A stretch of 64,000 bases of DNA from Bacteroidota bacterium. Lineage in GTDB: Bacteria; Bacteroidota; Bacteroidia; Bacteroidales; VadinHA17. Below the pieces are notes generated by a model. It was not told the DNA's origin. It ran no database searches and saw only the letters and a list, made by a program, of their open reading frames with translations. The position numbers and the translations under genes are program-made. The DNA is taken from positions 4,003 through 68,002 of the forward strand of contig JAZDMU010000048.1 in NCBI GenBank assembly GCA_043800695.1, in the 5' to 3' direction. This document shows positions 4,784 through 55,394 of the stretch, one piece after another (positions within the stretch are counted from its first letter, which is position 1; every line of letters begins with the position of its first letter).

Positions 4784-5506
4784 TTATTGCTTTGCCTGCT
4801 TGAAGCCTGTATATATGCTGGCTATCCCTCCTGTCAGCTTCCTGCATCTTACATTGTCAAAACCAGTAATTTTCAGCAAATCCAGAAATTGCTCATAATC
4901 AGGAAACTGCATAACAGAATCAGGCAGATATCTGTAGGCGTTCCTGTTGCCTGAAAAGATCCTTCCGATCAGCGGGAGCAGCATCCTGAAGTAGAAGAGG
5001 TACAGTTGTCTGAACGGAAAATGCCGGGGCTTTGAGAATTCCAGTACCATTATCAGTCCATTTTCGTCAAGCACACGGTTCATTTCGGAGAGGCCTTTAA
5101 GCCTGTCGGAAAAATTCCTTACACCGAAAGCCACCATAGCAACATCAAAACTTCCGGCACTGAAAGGAATTTTTTCCGATCCGGCCAGAACAAGATCGAT
5201 CCTCCCTTCGAGTCCCTTCTTTCTAATTTTCTGACGTCCCGACTCAAGCATTTTAGCGGAGATATCTATCCCGGTAATATGCCTGGGATCCAGTCTCATT
5301 GCCGCAATAGCCAGGTCGCAGGTTCCGGTCGCAACATCAAGAATCCTTGTGTTTTTGTGTGTTTCAGAGATAACCCTGACAGCCTGCCTCCTCCACGAGC
5401 GATCGACGCCGAACGACAGGAGGTGATTGAGGAAATCATAACGGGGTGCGATGTCGTCGAACATCGAACCGACATCAGAATATGACTTTTGCGGATTTGT
5501 GCCCAT
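4784..5506 (-). CDS. ubiE: Demethylmenaquinone / ubiquinone-menaquinone C-methyltransferase
   Basis: 240 aa. FDDIAPRYDFLNHLLSFGVDRSWRR and ILDVATGTCDLA (SAM motif I) are hallmark UbiE/MenG sequences. Confidence 0.92.
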   Translation of the reverse strand: MGTNPQKSYSDVGSMFDDIAPRYDFLNHLLSFGVDRSWRRQAVRVISETHKNTRILDVATGTCDLAIAAMRLDPRHITGIDISAKMLESGRQKIRKKGLEGRIDLVLAGSEKIPFSAGSFDVAMVAFGVRNFSDRLKGLSEMNRVLDENGLIMVLEFSKPRHFPFRQLYLFYFRMLLPLIGRIFSGNRNAYRYLPDSVMQFPDYEQFLDLLKITGFDNVRCRKLTGGIASIYTGFKQAKQ

Positions 5507-7180: not shown

Positions 7181-8173
7181 ATGGGACGTTATGTAACATT
7201 ATTCACCGGTCAGTGGGCTGACCTGCCTCTTGAGGAGGTGTGCCGGAAAGCAAAGTCGTTCGGATATGACGGACTTGAACTTGCATGCTGGGGTGATCAT
7301 TTTGAGGTTAATATAGCGAATGACGCCTACTGCAGGGCAAAGCGGAAACTGCTTGACAAATACGGGTTGAAGGTGTTTGCGATTTCCAGCCATCTTGTGG
7401 GGCAGGCAGTTGCAGACAGGATCGACGAGCGTCACAAAAGCATACTCCCTGCATATGTGTGGGGTGACGGCGATCCTGAAGGAGTAAGAAAAAGAGCCGC
7501 GGAAGAGATGATAAAAACCGGTGAAGCTGCAAAGCGTCTTGGCGTTTCTGTTGTCAACGGATTCACGGGCAGCCCGATCTGGCACCTGGTTTATTCCTTT
7601 CCTCCTGTTCCATCGAAAATGATTGAGGACGGATACAGGGAGTTCGCCAGAAGATGGAAGCCAATACTTGATGCTTACAAGAAACTGGGAATAAGGTTCG
7701 GACTTGAAGTGCATCCTACAGAAATAGCTTTCGATATATTTTCTGCAGGTAAAGCCCTGAAAGCCCTGAACAATCATCCGTCCTTCGGATTCAACTACGA
7801 TCCATCACACTTCGGATACCAGGGAGTTGACTATGTAGGGTTCATCCACACTTTTGCCGACAGGATATTCCACGTGCACATGAAGGACTCCGGGTGGTCA
7901 GACATCCCGGTTGAGGCCGGCGTTTTCGGAGGACACACCGAGTTCGGTACAAAAGGTCGTTACTGGGATTTCAGGAGCCCGGGGCGCGGTAATATAAACT
8001 TTGAGGAAATTATCCGGGCGTTAAACCGGATCGGTTATAAGGGTCCTCTATCGGTTGAATGGGAAGATAGCGGAATGGACCGTGAACATGGGGCCAGGGA
8101 GGCATGCGATTTTGTAAAAGCTGTCGATTTTGCTCCGTCCGACATTGCGTTTGATTCAGCATTCGAAAAATAG
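7181..8173 (+). CDS. Sugar phosphate isomerase/epimerase (xylose-isomerase-like TIM barrel)
   Basis: 330 aa. Pattern [13 protein letters not shown] ... GLEVHP ... HVHMKD ... SVEWED is typical of AP-endonuclease-2/xylose-isomerase-like TIM barrels. Confidence 0.8.
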
Positions 8174-8180
8174 AAACCAT

Positions 8181-9314
8181 ATGAAAAAAATTAAACTCGG
8201 AATGATCGGCGGCGGTATTGGAGCATTCATTGGTGATGCTCACCGGCGTGCTTCGCGCATCTGCAATGAATTTGAACTTGTTGGCGGTGTTTTTGATGCT
8301 GACTATGCCAGAAGCAAGGAATTTGCAATCAGGGAAGGCATAAACCTTAACCGCTGTTATAACAGTGTTGATTCTCTTATCAAAGGGGAACTTGCATTAC
8401 CAGCAAAAGAGAGAATGGAGGTTGTGGCAATTGTTACACCAAATTCTCTCCACTTCCCTTTTGCAAAAAAATTCCTGAATAACGGGTTTCATCTTATCTG
8501 TGAAAAACCCATGACCATCACGGTTAAGGAGGCACTTGACCTGGAAAAGCTGGTGGCAAAAAGCAAGCTTACTTTTGCCCTTACACACACCTACACAGGC
8601 TACCCGATGATAAGGCAGATGAGAGACATGTTAGCAAAAGGCACTCTCGGAACTATTCAGCGTATTGACGCTCAGTACTACCAGGGGTGGATCAATGCCA
8701 TCATACACGGTACCGGCAGCCGCATCACAGGAGTATGGAGGCTCGATCCGAAATATGCCGGCGCAAGCAGCTGTATGGGAGATATAGGGATACATGCCTT
8801 CAACCTTATTGAATATACTACCGGATTAGAAATCAAAGAGGTTTTATCGGATCTGAACCCGGTCAAGGAAGGCGTGAAACTCGATCTTGACGGAACGGTG
8901 CTTCTGAGGTTCAGCAAGAAGTTGAAAGGAGTGATAAGATCAAGCCAGGTGTGCGCCGGGGAGGAGAACAATCTTACGATAGCTGTATATGGATCAAAAG
9001 GCAGTCTTAAATGGGGACAGGAGAATCCGAATTACCTGTACCTGATAAGCGACTCGGAGCCGATGAAGGTGCTGAAACCGGCTCACGGATACAACGGCAG
9101 GATGGCGGAAGAGGGGCACACGATGCCGGCAGGACATCCGGAGGGGATCTACGAGGCGCTGGCCAACATATATAAAGGTGCGGCTAAATCAATAAGGAAG
9201 GAAAAATTCATTCCCGGAGAGTTTCCGACGGTTCATGACGGTGTACGCGGAATGAAATTCATCCACGCAGTCGTTAACTCGAATGCAAAGGGTAACGTCT
9301 GGATGAAAGTATAA
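8181..9314 (+). CDS. Gfo/Idh/MocA-family oxidoreductase (cytoplasmic, no signal peptide)
   Basis: The ORF track starts at 8130. The in-frame ATG at 8181 gives MKKIKLGMIGGGIGAFIG, the Rossmann N-terminus typical of the family; EKP motif (ICEKPM). A start at 8130 would overlap the upstream gene. Confidence 0.85.
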   Translation: MKKIKLGMIGGGIGAFIGDAHRRASRICNEFELVGGVFDADYARSKEFAIREGINLNRCYNSVDSLIKGELALPAKERMEVVAIVTPNSLHFPFAKKFLNNGFHLICEKPMTITVKEALDLEKLVAKSKLTFALTHTYTGYPMIRQMRDMLAKGTLGTIQRIDAQYYQGWINAIIHGTGSRITGVWRLDPKYAGASSCMGDIGIHAFNLIEYTTGLEIKEVLSDLNPVKEGVKLDLDGTVLLRFSKKLKGVIRSSQVCAGEENNLTIAVYGSKGSLKWGQENPNYLYLISDSEPMKVLKPAHGYNGRMAEEGHTMPAGHPEGIYEALANIYKGAAKSIRKEKFIPGEFPTVHDGVRGMKFIHAVVNSNAKGNVWMKV

Positions 9315-9315
9315 T

Positions 9316-9400
9316 GGCTCAACGGCACAAAGGCACAACGGCGCAACGGCGTAAAGAACGCAAAATTTCAGTATAACAAGACTTTGCGCCCATTGCGGTT
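9316..9400. repeat. Octamer-type array (RCAAMGGC units) with a partially complementary distal arm
   Basis: GGCTCAACGGCACAAAGGCACAACGGCGCAACGGCG at 9316..9351, with partner CTTTGCGCCCATTGCGGTT at 9382..9400. Lies between convergent genes. The same words occur inverted at 35121..35184. Confidence 0.8.
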
Positions 9401-9405
9401 AATTC

Positions 9406-9672
9406 TTATTTCTTTTTCTTCAGAAGAAAGAATAACACTCCGCCAACTACCACAACAGCCCCTGAGATTAATGCGATAAGCACTGCTGAGCTTTTCTCTT
9501 GCGCAGCCTCTGACTTCTCATCCTCAACGGCATAATAGAAAGTCGGTTTGGCATCAGTATCAATATTTACAGTATCCTTTTGGGGTTGCGGTTGCTCCTG
9601 TGCGAAAGCCATGGTCAGTCCGGTCAATAACATTGCTGCTGATAAGGAGAGAAACAAGATCGCTTTTTTCAT
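9406..9672 (-). CDS. Small secreted, C-terminally membrane-anchored protein (hypothetical)
   Basis: 88 aa. Signal peptide (..LTMAFA-QE), a roughly 45-aa acidic ectodomain, one C-terminal TM helix, then KKKK. Last gene of the operon, 18 nt after the GT-C gene. Confidence 0.55.
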   Translation of the reverse strand: MKKAILFLSLSAAMLLTGLTMAFAQEQPQPQKDTVNIDTDAKPTFYYAVEDEKSEAAQEKSSAVLIALISGAVVVVGGVLFFLLKKKK

Positions 9673-9690
9673 TCTTAAATAGTTTTATGA

Positions 9691-11616
9691 TTATTTATCT
9701 TTTTCAGCCATTATTTTATCAAGTTCAACATACGCATCATAGTACTTCCGGTTAATACCTAAAAGCTTTTTGTAATAATCTGCCGCAACATCCATTTTGC
9801 CCTGAAATTTTGCAATATTGCCCAGATACATAAGCACAACCTCAGATTCCGGGTTTATCTCCAGGGCTCTTTTCAAAACGGAATCTGCTTCTGCATACTG
9901 TCCGTCATTGATTAATGCCCGTGCAAAATTATAAAAAATCATTTCATCATCATTAACAATTTTGAGAGCATTCCTGAACAATCTTATCGCATCATCGTTC
10001 CTCCCCTCTTCAAGTGCCAGATAACCGCGATAATCATCCCTGGTTTTTCTTTCAAGCACAGCACACAAAGGCACGCTGTCGGCATAAACGATATGCATGG
10101 CATCATCCGGAGGCCACTTTTCATTTTTGAGCATGAAGGGGGTGATATACCTGTTGGTTATTATTGCATAATCCCAGTCGTTCATACTCCGTTCCTCATT
10201 TCTGACAGAAGATGTACGGATACCGGGAAGATCCCGGAACTGCCATGCCACTGAATATGTGGCCGCTGCCAGGGCTGAATCTATTTTTTTTTCTGACAGA
10301 TGGTTTATCAGCCATTCAGATGCTTCCGTCCGGGCTGTGTAATAATAATCGGTTTCATAATTGCCATGAGCTCCTTTTACCCCTCCGACCAGCTGATTAT
10401 AATATATATAGGAATAAGGGAAATTCACTATCATGAATCTGACCGGATGAAAAGAAAGAATTAACACCGTAACAGTCAATAATATTCTTAATATACTGAC
10501 TTTCTGTATATTAAATGCCGTGCTATACCCCTCTGCAGCCAGAAGGACTATCAGCGGATAAAGAAAAAGGAACTGCCGCCATGAACTGTACAGGTTTGAT
10601 TTTTGAATCATCACAAAGACCAGCGGGAATATTATCGTGAAAGCAATCAATCCATATAAAACAGCTTTTCTGTCCTTAAAAATCTTCCTCATGAAGACCA
10701 GAAAGATTATTAACCCCGCTGTCACTGCAAGTGGGACTGTGATAGCCATTGATTTCGGGATGTAATACCATGGCATGTGATCGGACCACATTACATTACC
10801 TTCAAAGATCTGCCGGAATGTTGATGGGAACTGAGCCATAATACGATAGGATCCGATCACATTACGCATGGGGTCCTGAAGTGCATACGGCCAAAGCAGG
10901 ATACTCATGAAAAATGCAGCAATCGTCACAAACAATAATACGACCAGTGTTTTCCACTCCTCTTTTCCGACCAGCCTCTCTTTTTGCAAAATGGAATAAA
11001 TCAAGCCAGTGATAAAGAAGAAAAAAAGATAACAGATAAGTAGTAAGCCTGTCGCCCTTATGCTCAATGCAACTGCTATGCTTATTGTAAGAAGTATGGC
11101 ACCGGCAAACGTATTCCTCTTTTTGGAAAAAATGAATTTCAGGCTGAAAAAAACTGAAGCGACATATCCAAGCGCAAACGGGACGTCTTTCAGATTATTC
11201 ATGGCATGGCCAATGAATGTGGGTGACACGGCAAAGAGGAACAATACCATAAACCCTGATCCGTAACCCGACAGCCAGACTGCAAAAAGTGCTGTTAATA
11301 AAATAACACTCCAGCCGGCAAGTGCACTCATTATGTGCCGGAACCTGTAAACATCATCTATTCTGAGCCAATGGATGAGTATGGTAGCAATGTTATCGAA
11401 CGACTGGCCGTAGTATTTAAGATGCGAATCCGGCGTATGAAGCGCTGACCTGTCAGTCCCTCCGGAGGCAAAAAAATCAAATACAGCTTCAGAGTGCCCG
11501 TAATGAAGCACCTCATCGCATGAGATACCGGCAAACCTGCTGGAGTAAACCATTGTCACCAGCAGCAAGAGAGCAACGGTATAGAAGATATATTTCAGAC
11601 TTTTCTGTGACATCAC
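9691..11616 (-). CDS. GT-C fold (GT39/PMT/ArnT-like) polyprenyl-phosphate-sugar-dependent glycosyltransferase with C-terminal TPR repeats
   Basis: 641 aa with about 11 predicted TM helices. A CDE (Asp-Glu) motif lies in the first extracytoplasmic loop directly after TM1. The C-terminal roughly 130 aa forms 3-4 TPRs (..AIRLFRNALKI.., ..YAEADSVLKRALEINP.., ..AADYYKKLLGIN..). Confidence 0.65.
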   Translation of the reverse strand: MMSQKSLKYIFYTVALLLLVTMVYSSRFAGISCDEVLHYGHSEAVFDFFASGGTDRSALHTPDSHLKYYGQSFDNIATILIHWLRIDDVYRFRHIMSALAGWSVILLTALFAVWLSGYGSGFMVLFLFAVSPTFIGHAMNNLKDVPFALGYVASVFFSLKFIFSKKRNTFAGAILLTISIAVALSIRATGLLLICYLFFFFITGLIYSILQKERLVGKEEWKTLVVLLFVTIAAFFMSILLWPYALQDPMRNVIGSYRIMAQFPSTFRQIFEGNVMWSDHMPWYYIPKSMAITVPLAVTAGLIIFLVFMRKIFKDRKAVLYGLIAFTIIFPLVFVMIQKSNLYSSWRQFLFLYPLIVLLAAEGYSTAFNIQKVSILRILLTVTVLILSFHPVRFMIVNFPYSYIYYNQLVGGVKGAHGNYETDYYYTARTEASEWLINHLSEKKIDSALAAATYSVAWQFRDLPGIRTSSVRNEERSMNDWDYAIITNRYITPFMLKNEKWPPDDAMHIVYADSVPLCAVLERKTRDDYRGYLALEEGRNDDAIRLFRNALKIVNDDEMIFYNFARALINDGQYAEADSVLKRALEINPESEVVLMYLGNIAKFQGKMDVAADYYKKLLGINRKYYDAYVELDKIMAEKDK

Positions 11617-12542
11617 TGCCCGGAATCGCCGCCGAAGAATTTCCTCACAAAATAGACCGGACGGTTCTGGGATTCCTTGTAGTTCCTGAAGACGTACTCA
11701 CCGAGCACTCCCAGGAACACGAGCTGTACTGAGCCGAGAAAATAGATGCTCAGCAATATCGATGACCATCCCGGAACGGCGATCCCGGTGGCCTTTGCTA
11801 TAAGTACATAAATGCCTGCCCCCAGGAATACTACTGTTCCTATCGTGCCCAGTATGAGGCAGAAACGTATCGGAAACCTTGAAAAGGAAAAAATGGCATC
11901 CGAAGCAAGAATGAAGAGTTTTCTGAAAGTCATCTTCGGCTTGCCCCGGTACCTTTCCTCCCTTACATACTCTACTTCACCATGCCTGAAACCGATATAG
12001 CTTCTCATCCCGGGCAGGTAGCGCACTTTTTCCTTCATCGCAAGAAGGGCATCAACGGCAGCCCGTTTCATCACCGAGTAATTACCGTAATTTCCCATTG
12101 AGCTTATATCGCCTATATTCCTGAAAACAGAATGGAAAATTGATGCGTACAGGTCACGGCTCCTGATGCCTTTCCTGCCTGTCCGCTTTGCACTCACAAT
12201 ATCAAAACCCTCATTAACAATCCTGTGATACATAGCTGAAAGCAGTTCCGGCGGATCCTGAAGGTCGCCGTCCATCATGGCAACGATGTCGCCGGTGCAA
12301 TGCTCAAGTCCGGCAGTGTATGCGGCCTGGTGCCCGAAGTTCTTTGAAAGCGACAATAATTTGATCCTCTTGTTTGTTTTCCTGGCAGCAAGTATAGATC
12401 CAACGCTATTATCCGTACTTCCGTCATCGACAAATATTATCTCATATTCATTTGAAAATGATTCTATTGCGGCAACGGTGCGTTTTAAGAGCTCATCAAC
12501 GAGCTTCTCTTCATTGAAAACCGGGATAACAAGGGAGAACAT
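11613..12542 (-). CDS. GT2 polyprenyl-phosphate glycosyltransferase (ArnC/GtrB/Dpm1-like)
   Basis: 309 aa. VIPVFNEE, FVDDGSTD and MDGDLQDPPE motifs plus two C-terminal TM helices. 4-nt overlap with the downstream GT-C gene. Confidence 0.85.
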   Translation of the reverse strand: MFSLVIPVFNEEKLVDELLKRTVAAIESFSNEYEIIFVDDGSTDNSVGSILAARKTNKRIKLLSLSKNFGHQAAYTAGLEHCTGDIVAMMDGDLQDPPELLSAMYHRIVNEGFDIVSAKRTGRKGIRSRDLYASIFHSVFRNIGDISSMGNYGNYSVMKRAAVDALLAMKEKVRYLPGMRSYIGFRHGEVEYVREERYRGKPKMTFRKLFILASDAIFSFSRFPIRFCLILGTIGTVVFLGAGIYVLIAKATGIAVPGWSSILLSIYFLGSVQLVFLGVLGEYVFRNYKESQNRPVYFVRKFFGGDSGQ

Positions 12543-13636
12543 TACTGTAACCTGTCTAACGCAAACTCAACATCATCAGCCAGCTCCTGAACGGATGAGA
12601 GGGCTTCAATGGCGGGAAGACAATTCTCCGAGCCCATCCAGCTGATCTCTCTCAGAAGAAGTTTTTTTGCTTCTGTCGCAGCCTTATCATCTTCAAGAAC
12701 CTTCACCATTTTCTTCTCGATTTCCAGTAGTTTCTCTTCATCGCCCTCAGCCTTTCGTATCATGCTTTGCAGGCATGCGAAATACTTTGTGCTTTTACTG
12801 ATATCATAATCCCTGATGTTCTCAAATATCTCATCGTATGTAATCTCTGTGAAGTCAGGTCTGAGGACAGGACCGGCCGCTGTAGGGAAGTCAAAAGGCA
12901 CTTCCCGGGTCACAGTCCCCGATGCTGCCCATTCAGCGCCTCGCTGCAATGTCACTATAAACCCTGCACAATGAAGTGCATTGTTCTCATTATCATCAGG
13001 AGTTCCGATCATCGTTGCGAATATTCTCCCCTTCCCAAGATTCCACGCTATCATTACCGGCTCCCTTCTGCCGCTGCCAGAATATGCAGTATCGGAATAA
13101 GCAGTGGCAAGAACTTGTGATCCTTCACCCGTAATTTGCAAACCATTCCGGATCAGATCAGCCTGATGAACCCATCTCACAGGCAATCCTTCAGTTACAG
13201 GATGATTCGTAATGGCATTCCTGATCTCGAAATCGTGCCGTTTCGTAACGGACACTGTCTCTGAAGAGACAGCAACGCGATCACTTAACGAATTATAAAT
13301 TACAAGGCCTCCCCCTTCCTTTACAAATTCAGTCAATGCACTAACAGTGCCTTCATTCAGCGGATCATCGTAATAGTTTGAAACAACCAGGTCGTAATCA
13401 GCAAAAGCCGGAGAAAAAGATGACATATCCCCGCCCTTTTCCGGTGATATAATAATATCCGTTTTAAACAAACCTGTTAAATCAAGTATTTGTTTCGCCG
13501 ACTCCGAGCTGACCTTCCAGTTATATTCACTTTGTCCTGTGATTATCAGTGCTTTATACTTAGGGGCTTTCTTGCATGCAGGGATTATGGAAATCAGTGC
13601 GGCTGCAAGCAGGTATATAAAATGTAGTTTTCTCAT
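12542..13636 (-). CDS. ThuA-domain lipoprotein with a C-terminal HEAT-like helical region
   Basis: The internal ATG at 13636 gives MRKLHFIYLLAAALISIIPAC (lipobox) and avoids overlap with the upstream gene. ALIITGQSEYNWK ... VKEGGGLVIYNS resembles ThuA-like class-I amidotransferase-fold proteins. The last roughly 100 aa are helical repeats. Confidence 0.65.
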   Translation of the reverse strand: MRKLHFIYLLAAALISIIPACKKAPKYKALIITGQSEYNWKVSSESAKQILDLTGLFKTDIIISPEKGGDMSSFSPAFADYDLVVSNYYDDPLNEGTVSALTEFVKEGGGLVIYNSLSDRVAVSSETVSVTKRHDFEIRNAITNHPVTEGLPVRWVHQADLIRNGLQITGEGSQVLATAYSDTAYSGSGRREPVMIAWNLGKGRIFATMIGTPDDNENNALHCAGFIVTLQRGAEWAASGTVTREVPFDFPTAAGPVLRPDFTEITYDEIFENIRDYDISKSTKYFACLQSMIRKAEGDEEKLLEIEKKMVKVLEDDKAATEAKKLLLREISWMGSENCLPAIEALSSVQELADDVEFALDRLQ

Positions 13637-13647
13637 TTCTCTGTATA

Positions 13648-14961
13648 TTAAACTGTTGGGAGAGTCCATGGTTTGCGGTAAGGCCTGCTAAGAAGCCTGG
13701 CTGCCCTTTCATTTCCGGTAATAGTCTCGGTGACTGGGTCCCAGTGGATCGTTTGCCCGGTCGTCATTGCGATTTCGCCGAGAAGAGCAACGGAAATGGC
13801 GCGGTAAGCAGGTTCAATGGGCGCAATTGCCGGAGTACTGGTGCGGACGCTATCGACAAAGTTCTGCCAGTGGTTATCGCTCCTGTAAAGATGTATCTCA
13901 TTCTCCCCTATAACCTCGTCAAGGATTTTCGGATCTGAAGCAGTCAGGATGTTTCCCCTGTCGGTATGCACCCACCCCAGGTCGCCATGCCAGGTGGTGC
14001 CCATTCCGAGCTTCAACCTTGACGCATTGGCAACTCTCATTTCGATCCCGTTGGCATATTTGCATAGAAAATCATACTCAACCGGGACATTGTATAAACC
14101 TTCTGCCGGGTATACTCCGGTTCCTGAAATCTCGACAGGACCTGTATATTCCAGTCCGGCGCCCCAGTTGGCGATATCGATATGGTGCCCTGCCCAGTCG
14201 GTGAGCTGGCCTCCTGAATAATCGAGTATCCACCTCCAGTCCCAGTGCGACACTCCCCTGTACGGAACTTTCGGAGCCGGGCCGAGCCACATTTCCCAGT
14301 TCAGTTCAGGGGGAACCTCCTGCACAGGGGGAGTACCGATACCTCTGCCTCCGTCGGGAAGCCCTACTTCAATATATTTGATATTCCCTATCCTTCCGTT
14401 GATCGCCAACTCAGCTCCCCTGCGGAAATGAGGCTGCGACCGCTGCCAGCTTCCCGTCTGCCAGATGATGTTGTTCTTTTTAACCGCGGCCACTATTGTC
14501 TGCCCGTCATTGATGGTCCGGCAGATGGGCTTTTCACCATAAACATTAAGCTTTTTGTTTATGGCTTCGGTATAGATTATCCCGTGCCAGTGGTCAGGAA
14601 GGGCTATTGATACAGCATCAAGCTTTTCCTTTTCGAGGAGGTCGCGGAAATCACCGTAGGTGCGGCAGTCGCTGTTTTTGTTTGCAGCATCAACCGTCTC
14701 CTTTGCGCCTGCAAGATGTTTTGAATCGACATCGCATACTGCCACGAACTGCACTGCTTTCTTCAGATCCAGGAAGTCGCGCATATTAGACATACCCTGC
14801 GAGCCTGTTCCGATCGCTCCCATCACCACCCGGTCGCCCGGGGGAAGTTTGCCTCCCATTCCAAGTGCAGAAGCGGGAATTATGTTCGGAATAAAAAATG
14901 CCCCGGCAGCTGCAACGGCCGAGCGCTTTACAAAGATTCGTCTGGTTGTTTTTTGTGCCAT
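13648..14961 (-). CDS. Tat-exported Gfo/Idh/MocA-family oxidoreductase
   Basis: 437 aa. Twin-arginine signal MAQKTTRRIFVKRSAVAAAGAF, Rossmann GAIGTGSQG, and EKP motif (YGEKPI). Confidence 0.85.
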   Translation of the reverse strand: MAQKTTRRIFVKRSAVAAAGAFFIPNIIPASALGMGGKLPPGDRVVMGAIGTGSQGMSNMRDFLDLKKAVQFVAVCDVDSKHLAGAKETVDAANKNSDCRTYGDFRDLLEKEKLDAVSIALPDHWHGIIYTEAINKKLNVYGEKPICRTINDGQTIVAAVKKNNIIWQTGSWQRSQPHFRRGAELAINGRIGNIKYIEVGLPDGGRGIGTPPVQEVPPELNWEMWLGPAPKVPYRGVSHWDWRWILDYSGGQLTDWAGHHIDIANWGAGLEYTGPVEISGTGVYPAEGLYNVPVEYDFLCKYANGIEMRVANASRLKLGMGTTWHGDLGWVHTDRGNILTASDPKILDEVIGENEIHLYRSDNHWQNFVDSVRTSTPAIAPIEPAYRAISVALLGEIAMTTGQTIHWDPVTETITGNERAARLLSRPYRKPWTLPTV

Positions 14962-14966
14962 ATATT

Positions 14967-16337
14967 CTATATTATTTGTCCTTTAAATATAGGTTTTACA
15001 TTGCTCAATACAGGGGTACCTGATACCGGCGTTTCAAACACCATGTCAACAGGTCCGAATTCAATCTTTGACGGCCCCAGGTCCATATCCGACTTGAAAA
15101 TCTCATCCCATGTTATTGCACGCCCCGTATATGCCGCTGTCCTTCCCATGATGGCAGTCAGTGTGGAGAGAGCGGTCTGCTCAGCCTCATTGATATAATT
15201 GCCTGTCCTGATGGCCCATACAAGATGCATATGCTCCTGGACATAGGGCGGGATCACCGTCTGATTCATCCGGGTCCCGTTCTCGTCAAGGGGATACTCA
15301 AATTTCCATTTTACGTTCCCCTCCGTGTCCCATATTGTATTCTGGCAATTGGTATATCCTTCTGTTCCCATTACAAGCTCACCGGTCCCGTTTGTACAGC
15401 TGTCGATCTGCCTGCACATGCTGTGCGAACTCACGCCGCTTCCGTAATCATAATCGATGCTGAAGAAATCGTACTGGTCGCCAGTCACTCTTCTGTGACG
15501 GCCTCCGTAACCTATCGCTCTTTCAGGATATTTACCTATGAACCAGTTTATTACATCGATATTGTGAACATGAGTATCAAGTATATGGTCGCCGCAGAGC
15601 CAGCAGAAATTGTTCCAGTTGCGTATCATGTACTCCATGTCGTTCCATCCCGGTTCACGCTCCCTGAACCATACATGGTCCTGGTTCCACCATGCTTTGG
15701 CCGATGTGATCCTTCCAATTGCTCCTCCTGCAACCTGCCTGAATGTATCAATATAATCCTCCTGGTGCCTTCGCTGCGTCCCGGTGACAACATTCAGACC
15801 TATGGCTTCAGCTTTCCTGCCCGAAGTAATTATTGAACGGATGCCGACAGAGTCAACCGCGACTGGTTTCTCCATGAAAACATGCTTTCCCCTGGTAACA
15901 GCTTCAAGGAAATGATCGGGACGGAACTGAGGGGGTGTTGCCAGCAGTACTACATCAAGATCAGGCAGTGCCATCAGCTTTTTGTACCCGTCAAATCCTG
16001 CAAAGCAATTCTCTGCAGGGATTGGAAGATTGAATGATGCGAATCGCTCACGGCAGGCATCGATCTTATCCTGAAAGAGGTCGGAAAGTGCAACAATCTC
16101 CAGGTCAGGGCCCGAGCTTATGAAATTGATCGCTGCACCGGTTCCCCTGGCTCCTGCGCCGACAAGGCCCGCCCTCAGCTTCTTCCCTGAAGGCGCTCCA
16201 TTCAGTATCGGGGGAAGCTTAAGCTCCGTGTTATCAGCTTTCCTTTTGCATCCCGAAGCCACCATACCCGCTCCGGCAATCCCGATCCCGGCCAGCGCTG
16301 CAGCCCCGATGAATTTTCTCCTGTCAATGTTTTTCAT
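14967..16337 (-). CDS. Tat-exported Gfo/Idh/MocA-family oxidoreductase (paralogue)
   Basis: 456 aa. Twin-arginine signal MKNIDRRKFIGAAALAGIG, Rossmann GLVGAGARG, and EKP motif (FMEKPV). 5 nt upstream of the next gene. Confidence 0.85.
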   Translation of the reverse strand: MKNIDRRKFIGAAALAGIGIAGAGMVASGCKRKADNTELKLPPILNGAPSGKKLRAGLVGAGARGTGAAINFISSGPDLEIVALSDLFQDKIDACRERFASFNLPIPAENCFAGFDGYKKLMALPDLDVVLLATPPQFRPDHFLEAVTRGKHVFMEKPVAVDSVGIRSIITSGRKAEAIGLNVVTGTQRRHQEDYIDTFRQVAGGAIGRITSAKAWWNQDHVWFREREPGWNDMEYMIRNWNNFCWLCGDHILDTHVHNIDVINWFIGKYPERAIGYGGRHRRVTGDQYDFFSIDYDYGSGVSSHSMCRQIDSCTNGTGELVMGTEGYTNCQNTIWDTEGNVKWKFEYPLDENGTRMNQTVIPPYVQEHMHLVWAIRTGNYINEAEQTALSTLTAIMGRTAAYTGRAITWDEIFKSDMDLGPSKIEFGPVDMVFETPVSGTPVLSNVKPIFKGQII

Positions 16338-16360
16338 GTTTGTACTATATCTTTAAAAAA

Positions 16361-16387
16361 CCCACCCCTAACCCCTCCAGGGAGGGG
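16361..16387. repeat. G/C-rich hairpin element (CCCCTCC AG GGAGGGG) preceded by CCCACCCCTAA
   Basis: Palindrome read directly. Lies 18 nt after the stop of the cytochrome-FGE gene. On the minus strand the element is followed by a T6 run, so it may act as a weak terminator or attenuator inside the operon. Confidence 0.7.
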
Positions 16388-16404
16388 AATAAGATGTAAA
16401 AACT

Positions 16405-17940
16405 TTATTTTATAACCGAACTGTCAACCTCACATACTACTCTGAAACCCACGTCGATGCAATCTGAATACCACCAGATGCTCTTTGGCATCTGGGGATC
16501 GGTAACCAGCCACTCTTTCGTTTTAGTATAATCGCGTGCCGCGCTTCGGAGATCCCCGGCATCGCTTCTGAACGAGCCTCCCCTGATTACATGTTCCTGT
16601 CCCTTTGCCGGTCCACGCGGGTTTATCCCGGTTGAATCAGTGGAATAGAAATCAGGAGCATAGAAATCGGAACAGAATTCAGCCACATTACCCGGCATGT
16701 TTTTAAGGCCAAACGGATTTCCCTGCACTGATGAGGGCTCTTCAGTCTTCGCGTTGCTGTTAAGGCTGTAGATCACCCTTGAATCTATTATGGCAGTATC
16801 GGGACGGAACAGCTTCCTGAGAAATCCGTCAGAAGAATAGTCCCCTGCATCACCCTCAAAGAAATAAGGAGTCTCCGTACCTCCCCGGCATGCATACTCC
16901 CACTCAGCCTCAGTGGGCAGGCGATATTTTTTTCCTGTAATCCTCGACAGCCATTCGCAGTAAACATTTGCGGCATACCATGTCATCGTAATTGCCGGTC
17001 TTGACCCCTTACCCCAGCCCTGGTCAGGCGCGCCCCAGGGTGGAGTTGGTCCGCTGATAGCATCCACATCTTTCAGGTTTAGAAGCTGTGTTACTTTCGT
17101 CCCGGGCGGCGAACCTGTTTCCCTGAAGAAAGTCATATATTCATCCCATGATACCTCTGCCCTGCCGATCCAGAGCGGTGAAAGAGTAACTGTCCTGACA
17201 GGTCCCTCATCAGGATCCCGGAAAGGCTCATCATCAGGACTTCCCATGCGGAAAGTTCCTCCGGGGATTGCAATCATCTCAAATGAAACCCTCGTCCCGG
17301 GGATCATTTCAGTAAAGTTTTTAAATTCAGCGATTTTTGCAGGTTCACCAAATGGAGGCTCATTTGATGTAACAGTCACACCAAAGTTTGTATCGTGTTC
17401 ATGCAAAACTGCATTCTTATCATAATGTCCTACAGTCAGATGGCAGTTAATACAATTCAGGGGATCCCTGCTTTCAGTATAGAACAGGTGTGCGTTGCCG
17501 CCGTTGACGGATAGAGTTACCGGGAACAGATTTTCGTGGCAGTCAATGCATGATTTCTCATATACTATTTTTTTTGCATACTCAAGAAGCCTCTTTTTTC
17601 CCCATTCAATTTCAGAGGTGTCCTTAAAAAGATAGCCGTACAGATCCTTGAGTCCGTGTTTTGCCTTGGCAACCAGATAGCCCTCTCCTTCAGGAGGAAG
17701 ATGGCATTGGGCGCAGTGGACAATATTACCTGACGCATTATTGTAATGTGATGAGAGCTTCCAGCATTGGTCGGCGTGCGGGTGAACATGGCATGACATG
17801 CATGATTTGTCGGTTGAGGTGGCTTTAATCAGTTTTCCCCCTGAATAAAAAAGCACTGCACATACCAGCAAGCCGGAAATAAAAAACCAGGCTCTGGCTC
17901 TATGCCCCGCAGCAGGCCTTCTTCTAACATTATAATTCAT
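16405..17940 (-). CDS. NapC/NirT-type membrane-anchored tetrahaem cytochrome c fused to an FGE/SUMF1-like domain
   Basis: 511 aa. N-terminal TM helix (WFFISGLLVCAVLFYSGG). Four CxxCH sites (CMSCH, CAQCH, CIDCH, CINCH) within the first roughly 175 aa. Then FGE-sulfatase-family motifs IPGGTFRMGS, YRLPTEAEWEYACRGG, GNVAEF, VIRGGSFRS. Confidence 0.75.
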   Translation of the reverse strand: MNYNVRRRPAAGHRARAWFFISGLLVCAVLFYSGGKLIKATSTDKSCMSCHVHPHADQCWKLSSHYNNASGNIVHCAQCHLPPEGEGYLVAKAKHGLKDLYGYLFKDTSEIEWGKKRLLEYAKKIVYEKSCIDCHENLFPVTLSVNGGNAHLFYTESRDPLNCINCHLTVGHYDKNAVLHEHDTNFGVTVTSNEPPFGEPAKIAEFKNFTEMIPGTRVSFEMIAIPGGTFRMGSPDDEPFRDPDEGPVRTVTLSPLWIGRAEVSWDEYMTFFRETGSPPGTKVTQLLNLKDVDAISGPTPPWGAPDQGWGKGSRPAITMTWYAANVYCEWLSRITGKKYRLPTEAEWEYACRGGTETPYFFEGDAGDYSSDGFLRKLFRPDTAIIDSRVIYSLNSNAKTEEPSSVQGNPFGLKNMPGNVAEFCSDFYAPDFYSTDSTGINPRGPAKGQEHVIRGGSFRSDAGDLRSAARDYTKTKEWLVTDPQMPKSIWWYSDCIDVGFRVVCEVDSSVIK

Positions 17941-17942
17941 CT

Positions 17943-17986
17943 GTCCGGCAGATCAATAACCTGATAAAGTTAATTGATTGCCGGAC
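17943..17986 (-). promoter_or_regulatory. 14-bp stem hairpin ending 2 nt upstream of the cytochrome-FGE start codon
   Basis: GTCCGGCAGATCAAT (17943..17957) pairs with ATTGATTGCCGGAC (17973..17986) with one bulge and a 15-nt loop. No T-tract. Lies between msrAB and the cytochrome gene. Confidence 0.5.
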
Positions 17987-18032
17987 TTAGTAACAAGAAA
18001 TGGTGAAATTTTTAAACCTTTCTAAAACCCTT

Positions 18033-18956
18033 TCAGAATCTTTTTGTATATCCGTGACAGTACGGAGTCTTTCCGTTGTTGAAGTAATAATCCTGGTGGT
18101 AATCCTCGGCTTCAAAGAATTCTGATGCTCCGGTAACTGCCGTTGCAATACGGTATTCCTTGTCAGTCAGTATCTTAAGGTTCTTATCGATGAGTTTTTT
18201 CTGTTCATCATTCATATAGAATATCTCCGACCGGTACTGGTCTCCGATATCGGGACCCTGTCCTCCAGCCTGTGTGGGATCGTGAATCTCGAGAAACAGC
18301 CTGAGAAGCTTTTCATAGTTTGTCTTTTCGGGATCATAAATGATCCTGACCGCTTCCGCATGGCCTGTCTTACCTGTACACACTTCCTTATATGACGGAT
18401 TCTTTACATGGCCTCCCGTGTATCCTGAAGTCACTGAAATGACCCCGGGTTCTTTCTGCATGTAATATTCGACACCCCAAAAACAGCCCCCTGCAAATAT
18501 TGCAGTCCCGTATCTGCCTTCCTCCACTATTGCAGGCACAAAGTCGAGTGAAACTGAATTAACGCAGTGGCGGATGTTCTTCGGGGTCATTCTTTCTCCT
18601 GTGAAAACATGGCCGAGATGGGCTCCGCATGAAGCACATATTATTTCAGTCCTCATTCCGTCGGGATCAGGGAATCTCTTTACTGCTCCTTTTATTTCAT
18701 CATCAAAACTTGGCCAGCCGCAGTCTGACTCAAATTTCGACGACGAATAATAGAGGGCGGCGCCGCATTTTTTGCACAGGTAAGTGCCTTTCTGCCTGCT
18801 GTCGGTAAACTTGCCCGTAAAGGGAGCTTCTGTTCCCTTGTTATTAATGACATGCGCTTCAGCCTTGCTAAGGTTGTTGAGCGGAAGTTTTTCCTGGGCG
18901 AATGATTTTGCTGTCATTGTAAGTAATATTGACAATATTAAAATTATGAACCTCAT
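18033..18956 (-). CDS. msrAB: Secreted bifunctional methionine sulfoxide reductase MsrB-MsrA
   Basis: 307 aa. Signal peptide (..AKSFA-QE). MsrB zinc and catalytic motifs (CKKCGAALY, CGWPSF, CASCGAHLGHVF, RHCVNS), then the MsrA motif GGCFWGVE. Confidence 0.9.
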   Translation of the reverse strand: MRFIILILSILLTMTAKSFAQEKLPLNNLSKAEAHVINNKGTEAPFTGKFTDSRQKGTYLCKKCGAALYYSSSKFESDCGWPSFDDEIKGAVKRFPDPDGMRTEIICASCGAHLGHVFTGERMTPKNIRHCVNSVSLDFVPAIVEEGRYGTAIFAGGCFWGVEYYMQKEPGVISVTSGYTGGHVKNPSYKEVCTGKTGHAEAVRIIYDPEKTNYEKLLRLFLEIHDPTQAGGQGPDIGDQYRSEIFYMNDEQKKLIDKNLKILTDKEYRIATAVTGASEFFEAEDYHQDYYFNNGKTPYCHGYTKRF

Positions 18957-19172
18957 AACAATTTAGTTTATGAAGAAATAACAAATTTATAATAAAAAAG
19001 TTGCAGGAAAAGAATGGTATAATTTTTGAACCATTTTCCACGTTTATTGTTTAATTATCCTGCTGACATACTGAAGGGGAAACCCTTGAAAAAATGTCAG
19101 AAATTAATTTTGGGTCTGAAGGCTGTTTTTTAAATGAAAAGTTTATTTTTGTAATCTATTAATACGATTCTT

Positions 19173-19298
19173 ATGAAAAAGCTTGCTGTTGTCTTTTTAA
19201 TTGCTTTTGCAACTGCACTGGTACTCAGCTCATGCAACAGGGAGACCTGTCCGGCATACAGCCAGGCTGATACAGAACAGGCAGGTCACCTTGGCTGA
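19173..19298 (+). CDS. Small putative lipoprotein (41 aa)
   Basis: Below the ORF-track size cut-off. ATG at 19173 gives MKKLAVVFLIAFATALVLSSCNRETCPAYSQADTEQAGHLG*. Classic lipobox (LSSC). 36 nt upstream of the next signal-peptide gene. Confidence 0.4.
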   Translation: MKKLAVVFLIAFATALVLSSCNRETCPAYSQADTEQAGHLG

Positions 19299-19334
19299 TA
19301 CTTTTTTCTTCCGGTTTTTATAAGTAGGCTGATA

Positions 19335-20138
19335 ATGAAAAAGCTTCTTATAACAGCGGTACTGATAATGCTTTGTGTAGCCGCTCTGACTGCACAGGGG
19401 GAAATAGATGAACAGCAAAAAGTATTCTTCCGTAACGAAAGGTCATTTGCTCTTCTGCTTAACTCTGATGGATACGGCATTAATTACCGTGAAGCAAAGC
19501 GTATCAACTACCTGAACAAGCGCCTCCTTGAGTTAGATCTTGGCACATTGAAGCACCCCAAGGAATACAGGGTATCAAATCCTTATGCCCAGACGGCCGG
19601 CTCTTTTATCTTCGGGAAGCTTAATTCGGTGCTTTATCTCAGGGGTGGCATTGGGTACCAGCATGAAATATTCTCGAAAACCGACATCGGAGGAGTTGCT
19701 GTAAGGTACTTTGTCGCAGGCGGACCCGTGTTGTCGCTCTATAAACCGATTTTCTACAAGGTGCTTTACCTGGTTCAGGGCACTAACTACTATGAGGTAA
19801 AGGAAGAAAAATTCGAAGAGACGATACATACTCCCTTTGACATTTACAGCAGGGCGCCATTCACCAGGGGTCTTGATGAGATAAAAGCCCTTCCCGGCCT
19901 TTATGCCAGAGCAGGCTTCAACTTTGAATACAGCAGGCAGGACAAGGTCATTCATGCCATTGAAATAGGAAGCCAGATAAACGCATTCCCGAAGAAAATC
20001 CCGATCATGGCAAGCCCGGATAACAAAGCAATATACTTCTCATTATTTGTTAGTTACAGGCTTGGTGTAATTGTTGATCCGCTTCATCCCGAAGAAACAA
20101 ACTTTAAAAATCTGTTCCGGAGTAAAAAGGTCCTCTGA
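19335..20138 (+). CDS. Hypothetical secreted / outer-membrane-like protein
   Basis: 267 aa. Signal peptide (..AALTA-QG), alternating beta-strand-like composition, no recognisable catalytic motif. Confidence 0.5.
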   Translation: MKKLLITAVLIMLCVAALTAQGEIDEQQKVFFRNERSFALLLNSDGYGINYREAKRINYLNKRLLELDLGTLKHPKEYRVSNPYAQTAGSFIFGKLNSVLYLRGGIGYQHEIFSKTDIGGVAVRYFVAGGPVLSLYKPIFYKVLYLVQGTNYYEVKEEKFEETIHTPFDIYSRAPFTRGLDEIKALPGLYARAGFNFEYSRQDKVIHAIEIGSQINAFPKKIPIMASPDNKAIYFSLFVSYRLGVIVDPLHPEETNFKNLFRSKKVL

Positions 20139-34400: not shown

Positions 34401-35036
34401 TTTGGCGGTCTCGACCACGTTCTGGCTTCAGGAGAAGATATCAATGTGCTCGTTCTTGATACGGAAGTTTACTCAAACACGGGAGGACAGGCATCAAAAT
34501 CGACACCTGCCGGAGCCGTGGCAAAATTTGCAGCATCTGGTAAAAAGATTCGTAAGAAGGATCTCGGGCAGATGGCAATGACCTACGGATATGTTTATGT
34601 AGCACAGGTAGCAATGGGTGCAAGCAACGCGCAGTATCTCAAGGCTGTGAAGGAAGCTGAAGCTTATCCTGGCCCGTCGCTCATTATAGCTTACTCTCCT
34701 TGTATCAACCACGGACTGCGTGAAGGAATGGGCAAGACACAGGAGCAGGAGAAACTGGCGGTAGGATCGGGTTACTGGCATTTGTACAGGTTCAATCCGC
34801 TTGTTGAGGCTGAAGGGAAGAATCCGTTCACTCTCGACTCCAAGGAGCCCGACTGGAACAAGTTCCAGGCATTCCTCAACTCCGAAGTGAGGTATACCTC
34901 GCTTATAAAATCGTTCCCTGGCGAAGCTGAAGTGCTCTTCAAGGCTGCCGAGGAAAACTCAAAGTGGAGGTATAACTCCTACAAACGCCTTGCGGCTATG
35001 GAATACGCTCCCAAAACAGAGCAGACAGCAATCTGA
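31485..35036 (+). CDS. nifJ: Pyruvate:ferredoxin (flavodoxin) oxidoreductase
   Basis: 1183 aa single-chain PFOR. Two ferredoxin-type clusters (CIQCNQCAYVCPHAAIRP; CTGCGNCADVCPS) and the TPP domain GGDGWAYDIGFGGLDH. Confidence 0.95.
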   Translation: MATKKFITCDGNQAASHIAYMFSEVAAIYPITPSSTMAELVDEWSANGLKNIFGEQVKVVEMQSEGGASGALHGALQSGALCSTFTASQGLLLMIPNMYKIAAELLPGVFHVSARSIAAHALSIFGDHSDIYATRQTGFALLASGSVQEIMDLAGVAHLSAIKSRIPFLHFFDGFRSSAEVQKIEVIEMEDMTKLLDWDAVKRFRDNALNPEHPVTRGTAQNPDIFFQAKEAVNKFYEPVPDIVNSYMAEISKLTGREYKPFTYYGAPDAENIIVAMGSITDTTKEVIDYLRAKGEKVGLISVHLYRPFSLKYFFNVYPKSVKRITVLDRTKEPGAPGEPLYLDIKDMFYDRAERPLIVGGRYGLSSKDTTPAHMLSVFDNMKMKDPKNQFSVGIVDDVTFQSLPILPEIHVALPGTYSAKFYGLGSDGTVGANKNSIKIIGDTTDKYCQAYFAYDSKKSGGITTSNLRFGDKPIRSPYLVNTPDFVACHVPSYLDKYDMLKGLKKGGTFLLNSIWDVEETKNRLPDSMKKYMAENDIKFYIINATAIAEEIGLGNRTNTIMQAAFFRVANVIPYEKAESEMKKAIAKTYGKKGENVVKMNYAAIDKGTEVIKVDIPAGWADLKVEKKTDTRDIPEFIREVMEPINHLKGDDLPVSAFVNREDGTFPAGTTAYEKRGIAVNVPEWQPGECIQCNQCAYVCPHAAIRPFLLTEEETKNAPEGTKTIQGIPGVLKQYRFKIQLSVYDCTGCGNCADVCPSKNKALIMKPFETQLAEAERWVYMNDKVGYKDTVVDRFVNVKNSQFAQPLFEFSGACAGCGETPYIKAITQLFGERMTVSNATGCSSIFGGSAPSTPYTFNKKSGHGVAWANSLFEDNAEYGFGMAIGSNKMRERIALRMKESAASVNPETKAAFDEWLAGMDKAEASKTASAKVISACEKEKSPVAGEILELKQYLIKKSHWIFGGDGWAYDIGFGGLDHVLASGEDINVLVLDTEVYSNTGGQASKSTPAGAVAKFAASGKKIRKKDLGQMAMTYGYVYVAQVAMGASNAQYLKAVKEAEAYPGPSLIIAYSPCINHGLREGMGKTQEQEKLAVGSGYWHLYRFNPLVEAEGKNPFTLDSKEPDWNKFQAFLNSEVRYTSLIKSFPGEAEVLFKAAEENSKWRYNSYKRLAAMEYAPKTEQTAI

Positions 35037-53972: not shown

Positions 53973-53983
53973 ATTTAAAGTTT

Positions 53984-55348: not shown

Positions 55349-55394
55349 CTTATATGCTTAATATTTCTAATTATGTCTATATTATGGACATCTG

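Follow-up and report, generated by a model that had tools for sequence, protein, structure and literature searches.

A predicted operon of sediment and peat Bacteroidota that groups a cytochrome/FGE-like fusion and exported Gfo/Idh/MocA dehydrogenases with a glycosylation trio

The locus

The window analyzed here is a stretch of 64,000 nucleotides (nt) from a Bacteroidota genome (positions 4,003-68,002 of contig JAZDMU010000048.1, assembly GCA_043800695.1). It carries a cluster of seven minus-strand genes, which encode a tetrahaem cytochrome fused to a domain resembling the formylglycine-generating enzyme (FGE), two Gfo/Idh/MocA dehydrogenases (termed GFO1 and GFO2), a ThuA-like lipoprotein, a polyprenyl-phosphate glycosyltransferase (GT2), a putative GT-C membrane glycosyltransferase and a small protein of 88 amino acids (aa), in this order (Table 1). 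An initial annotation, made from the sequence alone, had described these genes, and they were reproduced at the same coordinates by our listing of open reading frames (ORFs). The intergenic gaps given there, 67, 5, 11, -1, -4 and 18 nt, were also reproduced, provided that the ThuA gene starts at its second Met, since the longest ORF extends to 13669. The start of the GT2 gene overlaps the ThuA stop by 1 nt, and the GT-C start overlaps the GT2 stop. Other loci compared with the window cluster are denoted by L-numbers (L001, L165 etc.).

Sequence comparisons show the cluster to be a genuine predicted operon that is conserved among Bacteroidota from sediments and peat. All of its products are predicted to lie on the inner membrane at its periplasmic side, or to be exposed to that side. 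It appears to be a composite of three parts, that is, a core pair (the cytochrome fusion and GFO1), an accessory pair (GFO2 and ThuA) and a glycosylation trio (GT2, GT-C and the small protein). The members of the core pair and of the trio, which we refer to as the five core proteins, are each predicted to have a membrane anchor. The earlier description of a single, co-directional and tightly packed unit stands, but the seven genes are not an indivisible set, because GFO2 and ThuA are missing in several lineages.

Table 1. Features of the window discussed in the text, with coordinates counted from its first nucleotide.
Feature	Position	Strand	Length	Evidence or remark
Membrane-anchored tetrahaem NapC/NirT-type cytochrome with cysteine-less FGE/PvdO-like periplasmic domain	16405-17940	-	511 aa	Pfam, motifs
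GFO1, predicted Tat-exported lipoprotein Gfo/Idh/MocA dehydrogenase	14967-16337	-	456 aa	PF01408, PF22725
GFO2, predicted Tat-exported soluble Gfo/Idh/MocA dehydrogenase	13648-14961	-	437 aa	PF19051 (4.9e-20), PF01408
ThuA-like lipoprotein	12542-13636	-	364 aa	From second Met; PF06283 (3e-11, 44.4 bits, cut-off 33.4)
GtrB/ArnC/PgfS-type polyprenyl-phosphate glycosyltransferase (GT2)	11613-12542	-	309 aa	PF00535 (3.6e-32)
Putative GT-C-fold membrane glycosyltransferase with small periplasmic domain and C-terminal TPR tail	9691-11616	-	641 aa	AlphaFold2, Foldseek
Small protein: cleavable signal peptide, periplasmic peptide, C-terminal transmembrane helix, KKKK	9406-9672	-	88 aa	
Candidate promoter and operator, CAATCAATTAACTTTATCAGGTTATTGATC	17951-17980	-		Conserved position, inverted repeat
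GC-rich hairpin followed by a T-run, terminator-like	16365-16383	-		In the 67-nt spacer 3' of the cytochrome gene
Periplasmic (predicted) MsrB/MsrA fusion	18033-18956	-		NCBIfam NF004042 (1.4e-130); 92 nt upstream of the cytochrome gene
Convergent cytoplasmic pair: xylose-isomerase-like TIM barrel and GFO3	7181-9314	+		TIM barrel 7181-8173; longest ORF of GFO3 8130-9314
UbiE/MenG-type methyltransferase	4784-5506			
Pyruvate:ferredoxin oxidoreductase	31485-35036			

The cytochrome/FGE-like fusion

The architecture proposed earlier for the first gene product agrees with the Pfam search, in which a NapC/NirT domain of about 170 aa (PF03264, 2.6e-21, 76.6 bits against a cut-off of 24.1) is accompanied by an FGE-sulfatase domain (PF03781, 7.7e-42, 144 bits). 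Four CxxCH haem motifs, at residues 47, 76, 131 and 163, are invariant among 20 aligned homologues and also across clades, and a hydrophobic segment at residues 15-33 is predicted to be the single N-terminal membrane anchor. The NapC/NirT, CymA and NrfH proteins characterized so far are mostly quinol dehydrogenases, and on this family basis the domain would connect the haems with the quinone pool. The fusion scores under every NCBIfam equivalog cut-off, and its database annotation is limited to “SUMF1/EgtB/PvdO family” or “TPR protein” (TPR, tetratricopeptide repeat). An AlphaFold2 model built from a 20-sequence alignment was unusable, with a predicted local distance difference test (pLDDT) score of 30.6.

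The best matches of the FGE-like domain in the PDB are the FGE of Thermomonospora (6s07, 1.5e-26) and PvdO (1.3e-20). In FGE, two copper-binding catalytic cysteines follow the RGGS motif, and the reference sequence is GGSFLCHESYC. At this position the domain reads RGGSFRSDAGDL, and both cysteines are absent, as they likewise are in five distant representatives of the fusion. Consequently, the domain could not be retained as a formylglycine-generating enzyme, the label that it had first been given, and it is, as far as its motifs indicate, a non-canonical and non-catalytic member of the family similar to PvdO and GldK. Its C-terminal motif DPQxPKSxWWYSD is invariant and rich in tryptophan, and for this reason the domain is possibly sugar-binding or partner-binding. 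A Thr/Ser-rich linker of the cytochrome was considered as a glycosylation site and rejected, since it is not conserved between the clades.

The dehydrogenases and the ThuA-like lipoprotein

GFO1 adjoins the cytochrome gene in every fusion locus that extends past it, at GFO1 identities from 96% down to 43%. Both GFO1 and GFO2 have Pfam Gfo/Idh/MocA matches above the cut-off, for the N-terminal Rossmann domain and the C-terminal alpha/beta domain, and the RRxF signals noted previously are present in both. The twin-arginine motifs, DRRKFIG in GFO1 and TRRIFVK in GFO2, are each followed by a hydrophobic stretch and are kept in the orthologues, and only the distant GFO1 of L092 was found with RK instead of RR. 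A lipobox lies behind this motif in nearly all of the 96 GFO1 orthologues scanned, and GFO1 is therefore predicted to be a lipoprotein exported by twin-arginine translocation (Tat), whereas GFO2 has the Tat motif without a lipobox. The catalytic motifs of GFO1, EKP and the His-rich GDHI...HVHN.D, are invariant down to 45% identity. A CxxC motif in the same protein is not conserved and was rejected as a redox site. Since the Tat pathway would export GFO1 in the folded state, NAD(P) is presumably bound on export, and glucose-fructose oxidoreductase is a known example of a Gfo enzyme that leaves the cytoplasm together with its cofactor (cited in PMC8121099).

GFO2 matches PDB entry 8tdf (2e-26) and the NCBIfam family BT_2158_fam (NF058561; 8e-43, 146.7 bits), without reaching the equivalog cut-off of 750; the score of GFO1 against this family is 28.2 bits. 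Both proteins are accordingly relatives of the BT2158-type glycoside 3-dehydrogenases rather than equivalogs. The ThuA domain and the lipobox, which is conserved, were both recovered, and the protein matches PDB entry 4e5v (2.7e-50). By contrast, the HEAT-like tail described for it was not: the tail of about 110 aa is helical-looking, and no Pfam family matches the last 112 residues at E <= 0.1. From these family memberships, GFO2 and ThuA look like an accessory pair of the ThuB/ThuA kind. Some loci have an additional GFO2-like paralogue, which is located between the ThuA and GT2 genes in L091 (12750-14075), whereas in L046, L052, L068 and L084 it comes after the small gene, at a distance of about 920 nt.

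The glycosylation trio

The GT2 protein, described as membrane-anchored, matches GtrB over its full length (PDB 5ekp, 4.2e-63 over residues 2-304) and ArnC as well (2.7e-46), and combines a GT-A catalytic domain with two C-terminal transmembrane helices at residues 230-248 and 262-280. The NCBIfam matches to PgfS (2.7e-66) and ArnC (9.3e-50) are both below the equivalog cut-offs.

The membrane domain of the next protein has no Pfam or NCBIfam match (PMT, PMT_2, ArnT, STT3 etc.), and a PDB sequence-profile search with its alignment returned TPR proteins only. Its AlphaFold2 model reached a pLDDT of 81.5, and the top non-TPR matches of this model in Foldseek are STT3 (6s7t, 5e-6), ArnT (5f15, 8e-5) and DPY19 (7zli, 6e-4), with TM-scores of only 0.36-0.43. 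An acidic motif after the first transmembrane helix, in the first periplasmic loop, is a trait of GT-C enzymes. Here, D33-E34 occurs just after the first helix and is invariant in 22 homologues, and both D33-E34 and an NLKD-PF motif are invariant between the clades at 30-32% identity. The GT-C/TPR label is thus upheld by AlphaFold2, Foldseek and the D-E motif, where Pfam and the PDB sequence profile see only the TPRs, and a GT-C fold is supported at the level of a structure model. In the window and its closest relatives, the protein is about 47 C-terminal TPR residues shorter than in most members of the clade (687-689 aa).

The small protein, described as tail-anchored, has a signal peptide and a C-terminal transmembrane helix followed by KKKK. 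The roughly 30 periplasmic residues in between, KDTVNIDTDAKPTFYYAVEDE, are conserved, and their motif KKDTVN[MI]DT[DN]AKPxxYYxxEDE is the most conserved part of the protein in the sequences from 63 loci (61 distinct). Swaps of Thr to Ser at the DTV position keep the hydroxyl group. In Prolixibacteraceae, a protein of the same architecture is encoded behind the GT-C gene with another motif, GTYI[DE]xLxxxDSSY[ML], and the idea that D-T-V is a universal O-glycosylation sequon is weakened by this difference. The tethered peptide may be an acceptor, a ligand of the TPRs or a subunit. Polyprenyl-phosphate sugars made by GtrB-type enzymes serve GT-C transferases that act outside the cytoplasm (PMC11127046).

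Distribution and conservation of gene order

A relative of the cytochrome fusion is encoded in at least 496 species-level genomes, which come from anoxic soils, peat and sediments, and the best 80 genome matches are all uncultured Bacteroidales-type metagenome-assembled genomes from peat, sediments and digesters. The taxonomically labelled relatives are all Bacteroidota; the distant metagenome loci are unlabelled, and other phyla were not specifically searched. The named relatives belong to Prolixibacteraceae, with close relatives of the fusion annotated in Draconibacterium. At the 50%-identity cluster level, there are only about five full-length representatives of the fusion.

Gene order was counted by tblastn of the window proteins in the 59 Bacteroidales loci whose sequence continues for 7.5 kb or more on the downstream side of the cytochrome gene. 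All seven genes were found in order in 55 of these, six genes in one, where no match to the small protein was detected by tblastn, and five genes, without GFO2 and ThuA, in three. The initial annotation had suggested checking co-occurrence of the families, which thus extends well beyond this genome, and the five-gene core recurs outside the clade. Five loci of Prolixibacteraceae (L088 and L170-L173), including those of the cultured Mariniphaga sediminis and Maribellus sediminis, have the order cytochrome-GFO1-GT2-GTC-small with gaps of -8 to +31 nt. Compared with the window proteins, the cytochrome has 51-54% identity, GFO1 about 60%, GT2 about 50% and GT-C only 30-34%, yet the residues that look catalytic do not vary. 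The surrounding genes are unrelated throughout: on the upstream side a LamG protein is encoded divergently, on the downstream side the genes vary, and msrBA (the MsrB/MsrA fusion gene), GFO2 and ThuA are all absent. Because order and spacing persist in two lineages with unrelated flanks, the linkage of the five genes therefore seems to be selected rather than leftover synteny; it is, on the same comparisons, evidently not obligatory. It should be noted that the divergent gene beside the five-gene unit encodes a protein of about 840 aa with a Laminin_G_3/ConA-like lectin domain in all five Prolixibacteraceae loci, and this protein may belong to the system.

In a neighbour-joining tree of GT2 and GT-C (no bootstrap support), the five-gene loci fall at three or more places among the seven-gene loci. 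GFO2 and ThuA have therefore probably been lost repeatedly, at least three times. The only fully conserved association, as far as these loci reach, is that of the cytochrome fusion with GFO1, which appears to form an invariant core of two genes. In three distant loci, a xylose-isomerase-like TIM barrel follows this core, with a Tat signal in L098, with a Tat-like signal and a lipobox in L092, and also in L095. Two further observations concern the surroundings of distant core pairs. ResB/CcsB-like and CcsA cytochrome c biogenesis genes come after the cytochrome-GFO1-TIM cluster in L092 (14621-16749), and a Tat-signal sulfatase is encoded right after the cytochrome and GFO1 in L085 (3282-4862), which is curious given the cysteine-less FGE-like domain.

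Promoter-like element, spacers and hairpin

Upstream of the cytochrome gene, there is a conserved non-coding element, CAATCAATTAACTTTA..GTTTTAATTGAT. Of 97 loci, 84 have the box TAACTTTA in this element, at a distance of 35-40 nt from the cytochrome start; in the window it is at 17965-17972, about 24 nt upstream of the start codon and inside a degenerate inverted repeat. This repeat, AATCAATTAA-N12-TTAATTGATT, is a perfect 10-nt inverted repeat in L001 (9955-9986) and L004 (9958-9989), while its arms in the window are 82% complementary and have on their outer sides a second inverted repeat of 8 nt, which is perfect, GTCCGGCA/TGCCGGAC (17943-17950 and 17979-17986). The box departs at one position from TAnnTTTG, which we take to be the -7 promoter box of Bacteroidota, and because of this resemblance we read the element as a candidate for the operon's own promoter and operator. 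Over the whole window, the number of TAnnTTTG occurrences is at chance level, and the motif is informative only in that its position ahead of the cytochrome gene is conserved. The counts from a sigma-70 promoter and terminator scan equal those of shuffled sequences, and an Rfam scan of 9000-19600 returned no riboswitch or leader, with one small-RNA match below the threshold.

A hairpin near 16361 had been put forward as a possible point of division of the unit. It does exist (-17.1 kcal/mol), but it is no more stable than shuffles (z = -0.25) and is lineage-specific, being common only to the nearest relatives; the spacer is about 25 nt in most relatives (median 24.5 nt, 94 loci). In L167, L011, L014 and L015, the cytochrome-GFO1 spacer has tandem GTTGAA(G/A)n units where the window has the hairpin.

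Proposed function and its alternatives

What, then, could a cytochrome and exported dehydrogenases do beside a glycosylation trio? From the observed gene order, family memberships, signals, conservation and modularity, we infer a substrate, an electron flow towards quinone and a substrate shared by the two modules. The best explanation in our view is a menaquinone-linked periplasmic sugar dehydrogenase that acts on a sugar displayed by the glycosylation module. It is argued largely by analogy, and we hold it tentatively, with a probability of about 0.38. GFO1 would oxidize one of the secondary hydroxyl groups of a sugar, probably the one at C3, and the electrons would pass via the haems to menaquinone, with the cytochrome-GFO1 pair being supplemented here by GFO2 and the ThuA lipoprotein. 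On the cytoplasmic face, the GtrB-type GT2 would put a sugar on polyprenyl phosphate, and after flipping, the TPR-tailed GT-C would move it to a periplasmic acceptor. The two activities would be coupled by a periplasmic redox tailoring step, in which the substrate of the dehydrogenase is either the lipid-linked donor or the glycoconjugate that has just been formed. The model for this analogy is DprE1, which oxidizes decaprenyl-phosphoribose upstream of GT-C arabinosyltransferases and hands electrons to menaquinone. A narrower version, in which NAD(P)-loaded GFO1 works via the cytochrome and menaquinone to oxidize or epimerize an undecaprenyl-phosphate-linked or just-transferred sugar outside the cytoplasm, and the small peptide is the dedicated acceptor or adaptor, is rather unlikely as a whole.

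The coupling of the redox pair to the trio is favoured because the five core products are membrane-anchored and because the five-gene unit persists over a long evolutionary distance. A sugar context is suggested by the TIM-barrel partners in the distant lineages and by the genes next door: in relatives, the pair formed by the TIM barrel and the additional Gfo protein flanks a major facilitator superfamily (MFS) sugar transporter and sometimes a DUF1080 3-keto-disaccharide hydrolase. The proposal of periplasmic sugar oxidation tied to quinones, already made in the initial annotation, is consistent with these partners and with the 3-keto-type neighbours.

Several points weigh against this explanation. 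In a flank control, five unrelated upstream genes were retained in 43-48 of 50 loci, a degree of conservation similar to that of the cluster; within the Bacteroidales clade, gene order alone is therefore uninformative on function, and its conservation across 80 Bacteroidales loci was rejected as proof of function. The redox and glycosylation modules are separable. At the same syntenic site, L165 (7868-12360) has msrBA-GT2-GTC-small without the redox genes, and since its msrBA-GT2 spacer can be aligned with the sequence usually found in front of the cytochrome gene, this locus seems to have arisen by deletion of the redox genes. Conversely, in L092, L095, L098 and L085, the cytochrome and GFO1 occur with no glycosyltransferases nearby. 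The cluster encodes no GtrA-like multi-pass flippase, its sole extra gene being that of the single-pass 88-aa protein. No FAD domain was found in any cluster protein by Pfam or NCBIfam, and nothing evident in the operon would convert hydride to one-electron transfer, from NAD(P)H on GFO1 to the haems. Finally, the catabolic-looking neighbours would fit a degradative role equally well.

Such a role is part of the strongest alternative, which we rate only slightly lower than the coupling reading: two independent functions would share one promoter, a catabolic quinone-linked periplasmic glycoside (3-keto) dehydrogenase feeding the transporter and the cytoplasmic TIM-barrel and Gfo genes nearby, and an unrelated envelope glycosylation, with no common substrate. 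It would account for the occurrence of redox and glycosylation genes apart from each other, for the catabolic genes that adjoin in relatives (GFO3, MFS transporter, TIM barrel and DUF1080), for the exported TIM barrel that accompanies the core pair in distant lineages, in the manner of 3-keto-glycoside pathways, and for the high background synteny in the Bacteroidales clade. However, two families with unrelated flanks have these five genes in an identical order, with gaps of -8 to +31 nt, at a GT-C identity of only 30-34%. Moreover, the redox pair is never found without the downstream trio in the 59 Bacteroidales and five Prolixibacteraceae loci, and in the window start and stop codons overlap at the very boundary between the modules.

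Alternatively, the trio might serve the redox complex, with GT-C O-glycosylating the small peptide or a lipoprotein, and a lectin-like FGE domain or the TPR tail using this glycan or the peptide for assembly or stability of the dehydrogenase complex at the membrane surface. The invariant hydroxyl- and Tyr-rich periplasmic motif of the small peptide in 63 loci, in which the Thr to Ser swaps keep the hydroxyl, would suit such a role, as would the invariant DPQxPKSxWWYSD motif of the FGE-like domain and the similarity of GT2 to PgfS-like enzymes, which act in protein glycosylation (NCBIfam match). Among GT-C enzymes, a TPR tail is characteristic of protein O-mannosyltransferases such as TMTC (PMC7801869). 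Yet the peptide motif depends on the clade (KDTVNxDT...YY versus GTYIDNLG.QDSSYM), the Thr/Ser-rich linker is not conserved, L165 keeps the trio without redox genes, and distant lineages keep the redox pair without the trio. We consider this alternative distinctly unlikely.

Reversed electron flow, in which the cytochrome oxidizes menaquinol and drives a periplasmic reduction, for example of a keto-sugar, with the FGE-like domain and the Gfo proteins, is more improbable still. The precedent of quinol dehydrogenases among the characterized NapC/NirT, CymA and NrfH proteins, the reversibility of Gfo/Idh/MocA enzymes and the presence of the periplasmic MsrBA reductase just upstream in one clade are in keeping with it. 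Judging from standard potentials, menaquinol would be ill suited to the reduction of ketone/alcohol or NAD(P) couples; in addition, the Prolixibacteraceae unit has no MsrBA, and the neighbouring genes point to oxidative sugar metabolism of the 3-keto type. Lastly, a true quinol-powered FGE that matures periplasmic sulfatases was rejected as highly improbable, despite the PF03781 match of 7.7e-42 and the sulfatase of L085, because the catalytic cysteines are missing (GGSFRSDAGDL against GGSFLCHESYC), in the five distant representatives too, and because, besides L085, neither the window cluster nor the other examined loci have a sulfatase.

Comparison with known systems

If the narrower version of the coupling reading holds, it would represent a new class of periplasmic glycan tailoring and reveal a way of providing and regenerating a redox cofactor on the periplasmic side of the membrane. 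The operon encodes all the parts that would be needed for a cofactor route to periplasmic redox or epimerase steps on lipid-linked sugars. Redox tailoring of a lipid-linked sugar upstream of a GT-C, as proposed here, is the likeness to DprE1/DprE2 and the mycobacterial GT-C arabinosyltransferases. This analogy is functional only, because DprE1 is a flavoenzyme without a signal peptide, while the system described here would use a Tat-exported NAD(P)-type Gfo protein and a tetrahaem cytochrome, with no FAD domain. In the epimerase-assisted three-component systems, a lipid-linked sugar is likewise tailored upstream of GT-C (Kelly et al., 2024; PMC11127046), and for these auxiliary epimerases, which work on lipid-linked sugars ahead of GT-C, the access of a periplasmic version to its cofactor is unsolved (PMC11127046).

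The Gtr/Arn-type systems (GtrA/GtrB/GtrC, ArnC/ArnT and PgfS/PgfM) similarly place a GT2 polyprenyl-phosphate sugar synthase beside a periplasmic-face GT-C. However, here there is no gene for a flippase of the GtrA or ArnE/F type, the third component is a single-pass peptide, and the putative GT-C is TPR-tailed, lies outside the Pfam GT-C families and is operon-fused to a cytochrome and dehydrogenase pair. With the eukaryotic O-mannosyltransferases TMTC1-4, it shares a GT-C domain, a D-E motif near the first transmembrane helix and C-terminal TPRs, which is a likeness of architecture only.

As for the redox part, the 3-keto-glycoside pathways of Bacteroides thetaiotaomicron (BT2156-BT2160) and of rhizobia (ThuAB) share with the operon a Tat-exported GFO2-type dehydrogenase, a ThuA partner, xylose-isomerase-like TIM barrels and DUF1080 neighbours. 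These pathways include no glycosyltransferases, unlike the operon, and the score of GFO2 is 147 bits against the cut-off of 750. B. thetaiotaomicron has no dedicated cytochrome acceptor, and the acceptor that re-oxidizes the Tat-exported BT2158 is still open (PMC8121099); a cytochrome that always travels with an exported Gfo protein is thus a concrete candidate electron acceptor for periplasmic Gfo/Idh/MocA dehydrogenases. One N-terminal transmembrane helix, four CxxCH motifs and the Pfam/NCBIfam matches are shared with NapC/NirT/CymA/NrfH, but this cytochrome is fused to a 300-aa FGE-like domain, and its partner is a Gfo dehydrogenase, not a reductase. The FGE-like domain in turn shares the fold and most framework motifs of the FGE/PvdO/GldK-PorK family, from which it differs in lacking the two catalytic cysteines, in having its own DPQxPKSxWWYSD motif and in being tethered to haems.

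Each part thus comes from a known family, and the combination has not been described before. In the literature search, we found no paper that combines NirT with a formylglycine-generating enzyme, or GtrB/GT-C with a Tat oxidoreductase, and no description of the cytochrome/FGE-like fusion, of its Tat-lipoprotein Gfo partner or of an operon fusion to GtrB/GT-C. The system should be accessible to experiment, since the five-gene unit occurs in cultured Mariniphaga and Maribellus.

Neighbouring genes

The gene msrBA encodes an MsrB/MsrA fusion, a methionine sulfoxide reductase that is predicted to be periplasmic from its signal peptide. Of 50 Bacteroidales loci, 41 have this gene next to the cluster, and in the window it has a TAAATTTG box of its own at 18982-18989. 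Its membership in the operon as the first gene was judged unlikely, given the promoter-like element in between and its absence in Prolixibacteraceae; as the operon seems to have its own promoter upstream of the cytochrome gene, msrBA is therefore probably a separate transcription unit. On the other side, the convergent pair of a TIM barrel and a Gfo/Idh/MocA protein, which had also been noted before, was recovered by the domain search.

Farther away, the UbiE/MenG-type methyltransferase and the pyruvate:ferredoxin oxidoreductase would fit a menaquinone-containing anaerobe. A stretch of low GC content at 52001-58000 (0.36-0.39, compared with about 0.45 elsewhere) encodes a histidine kinase, a sigma-54 response regulator and a MacB/FtsX-type permease, and may be an island.

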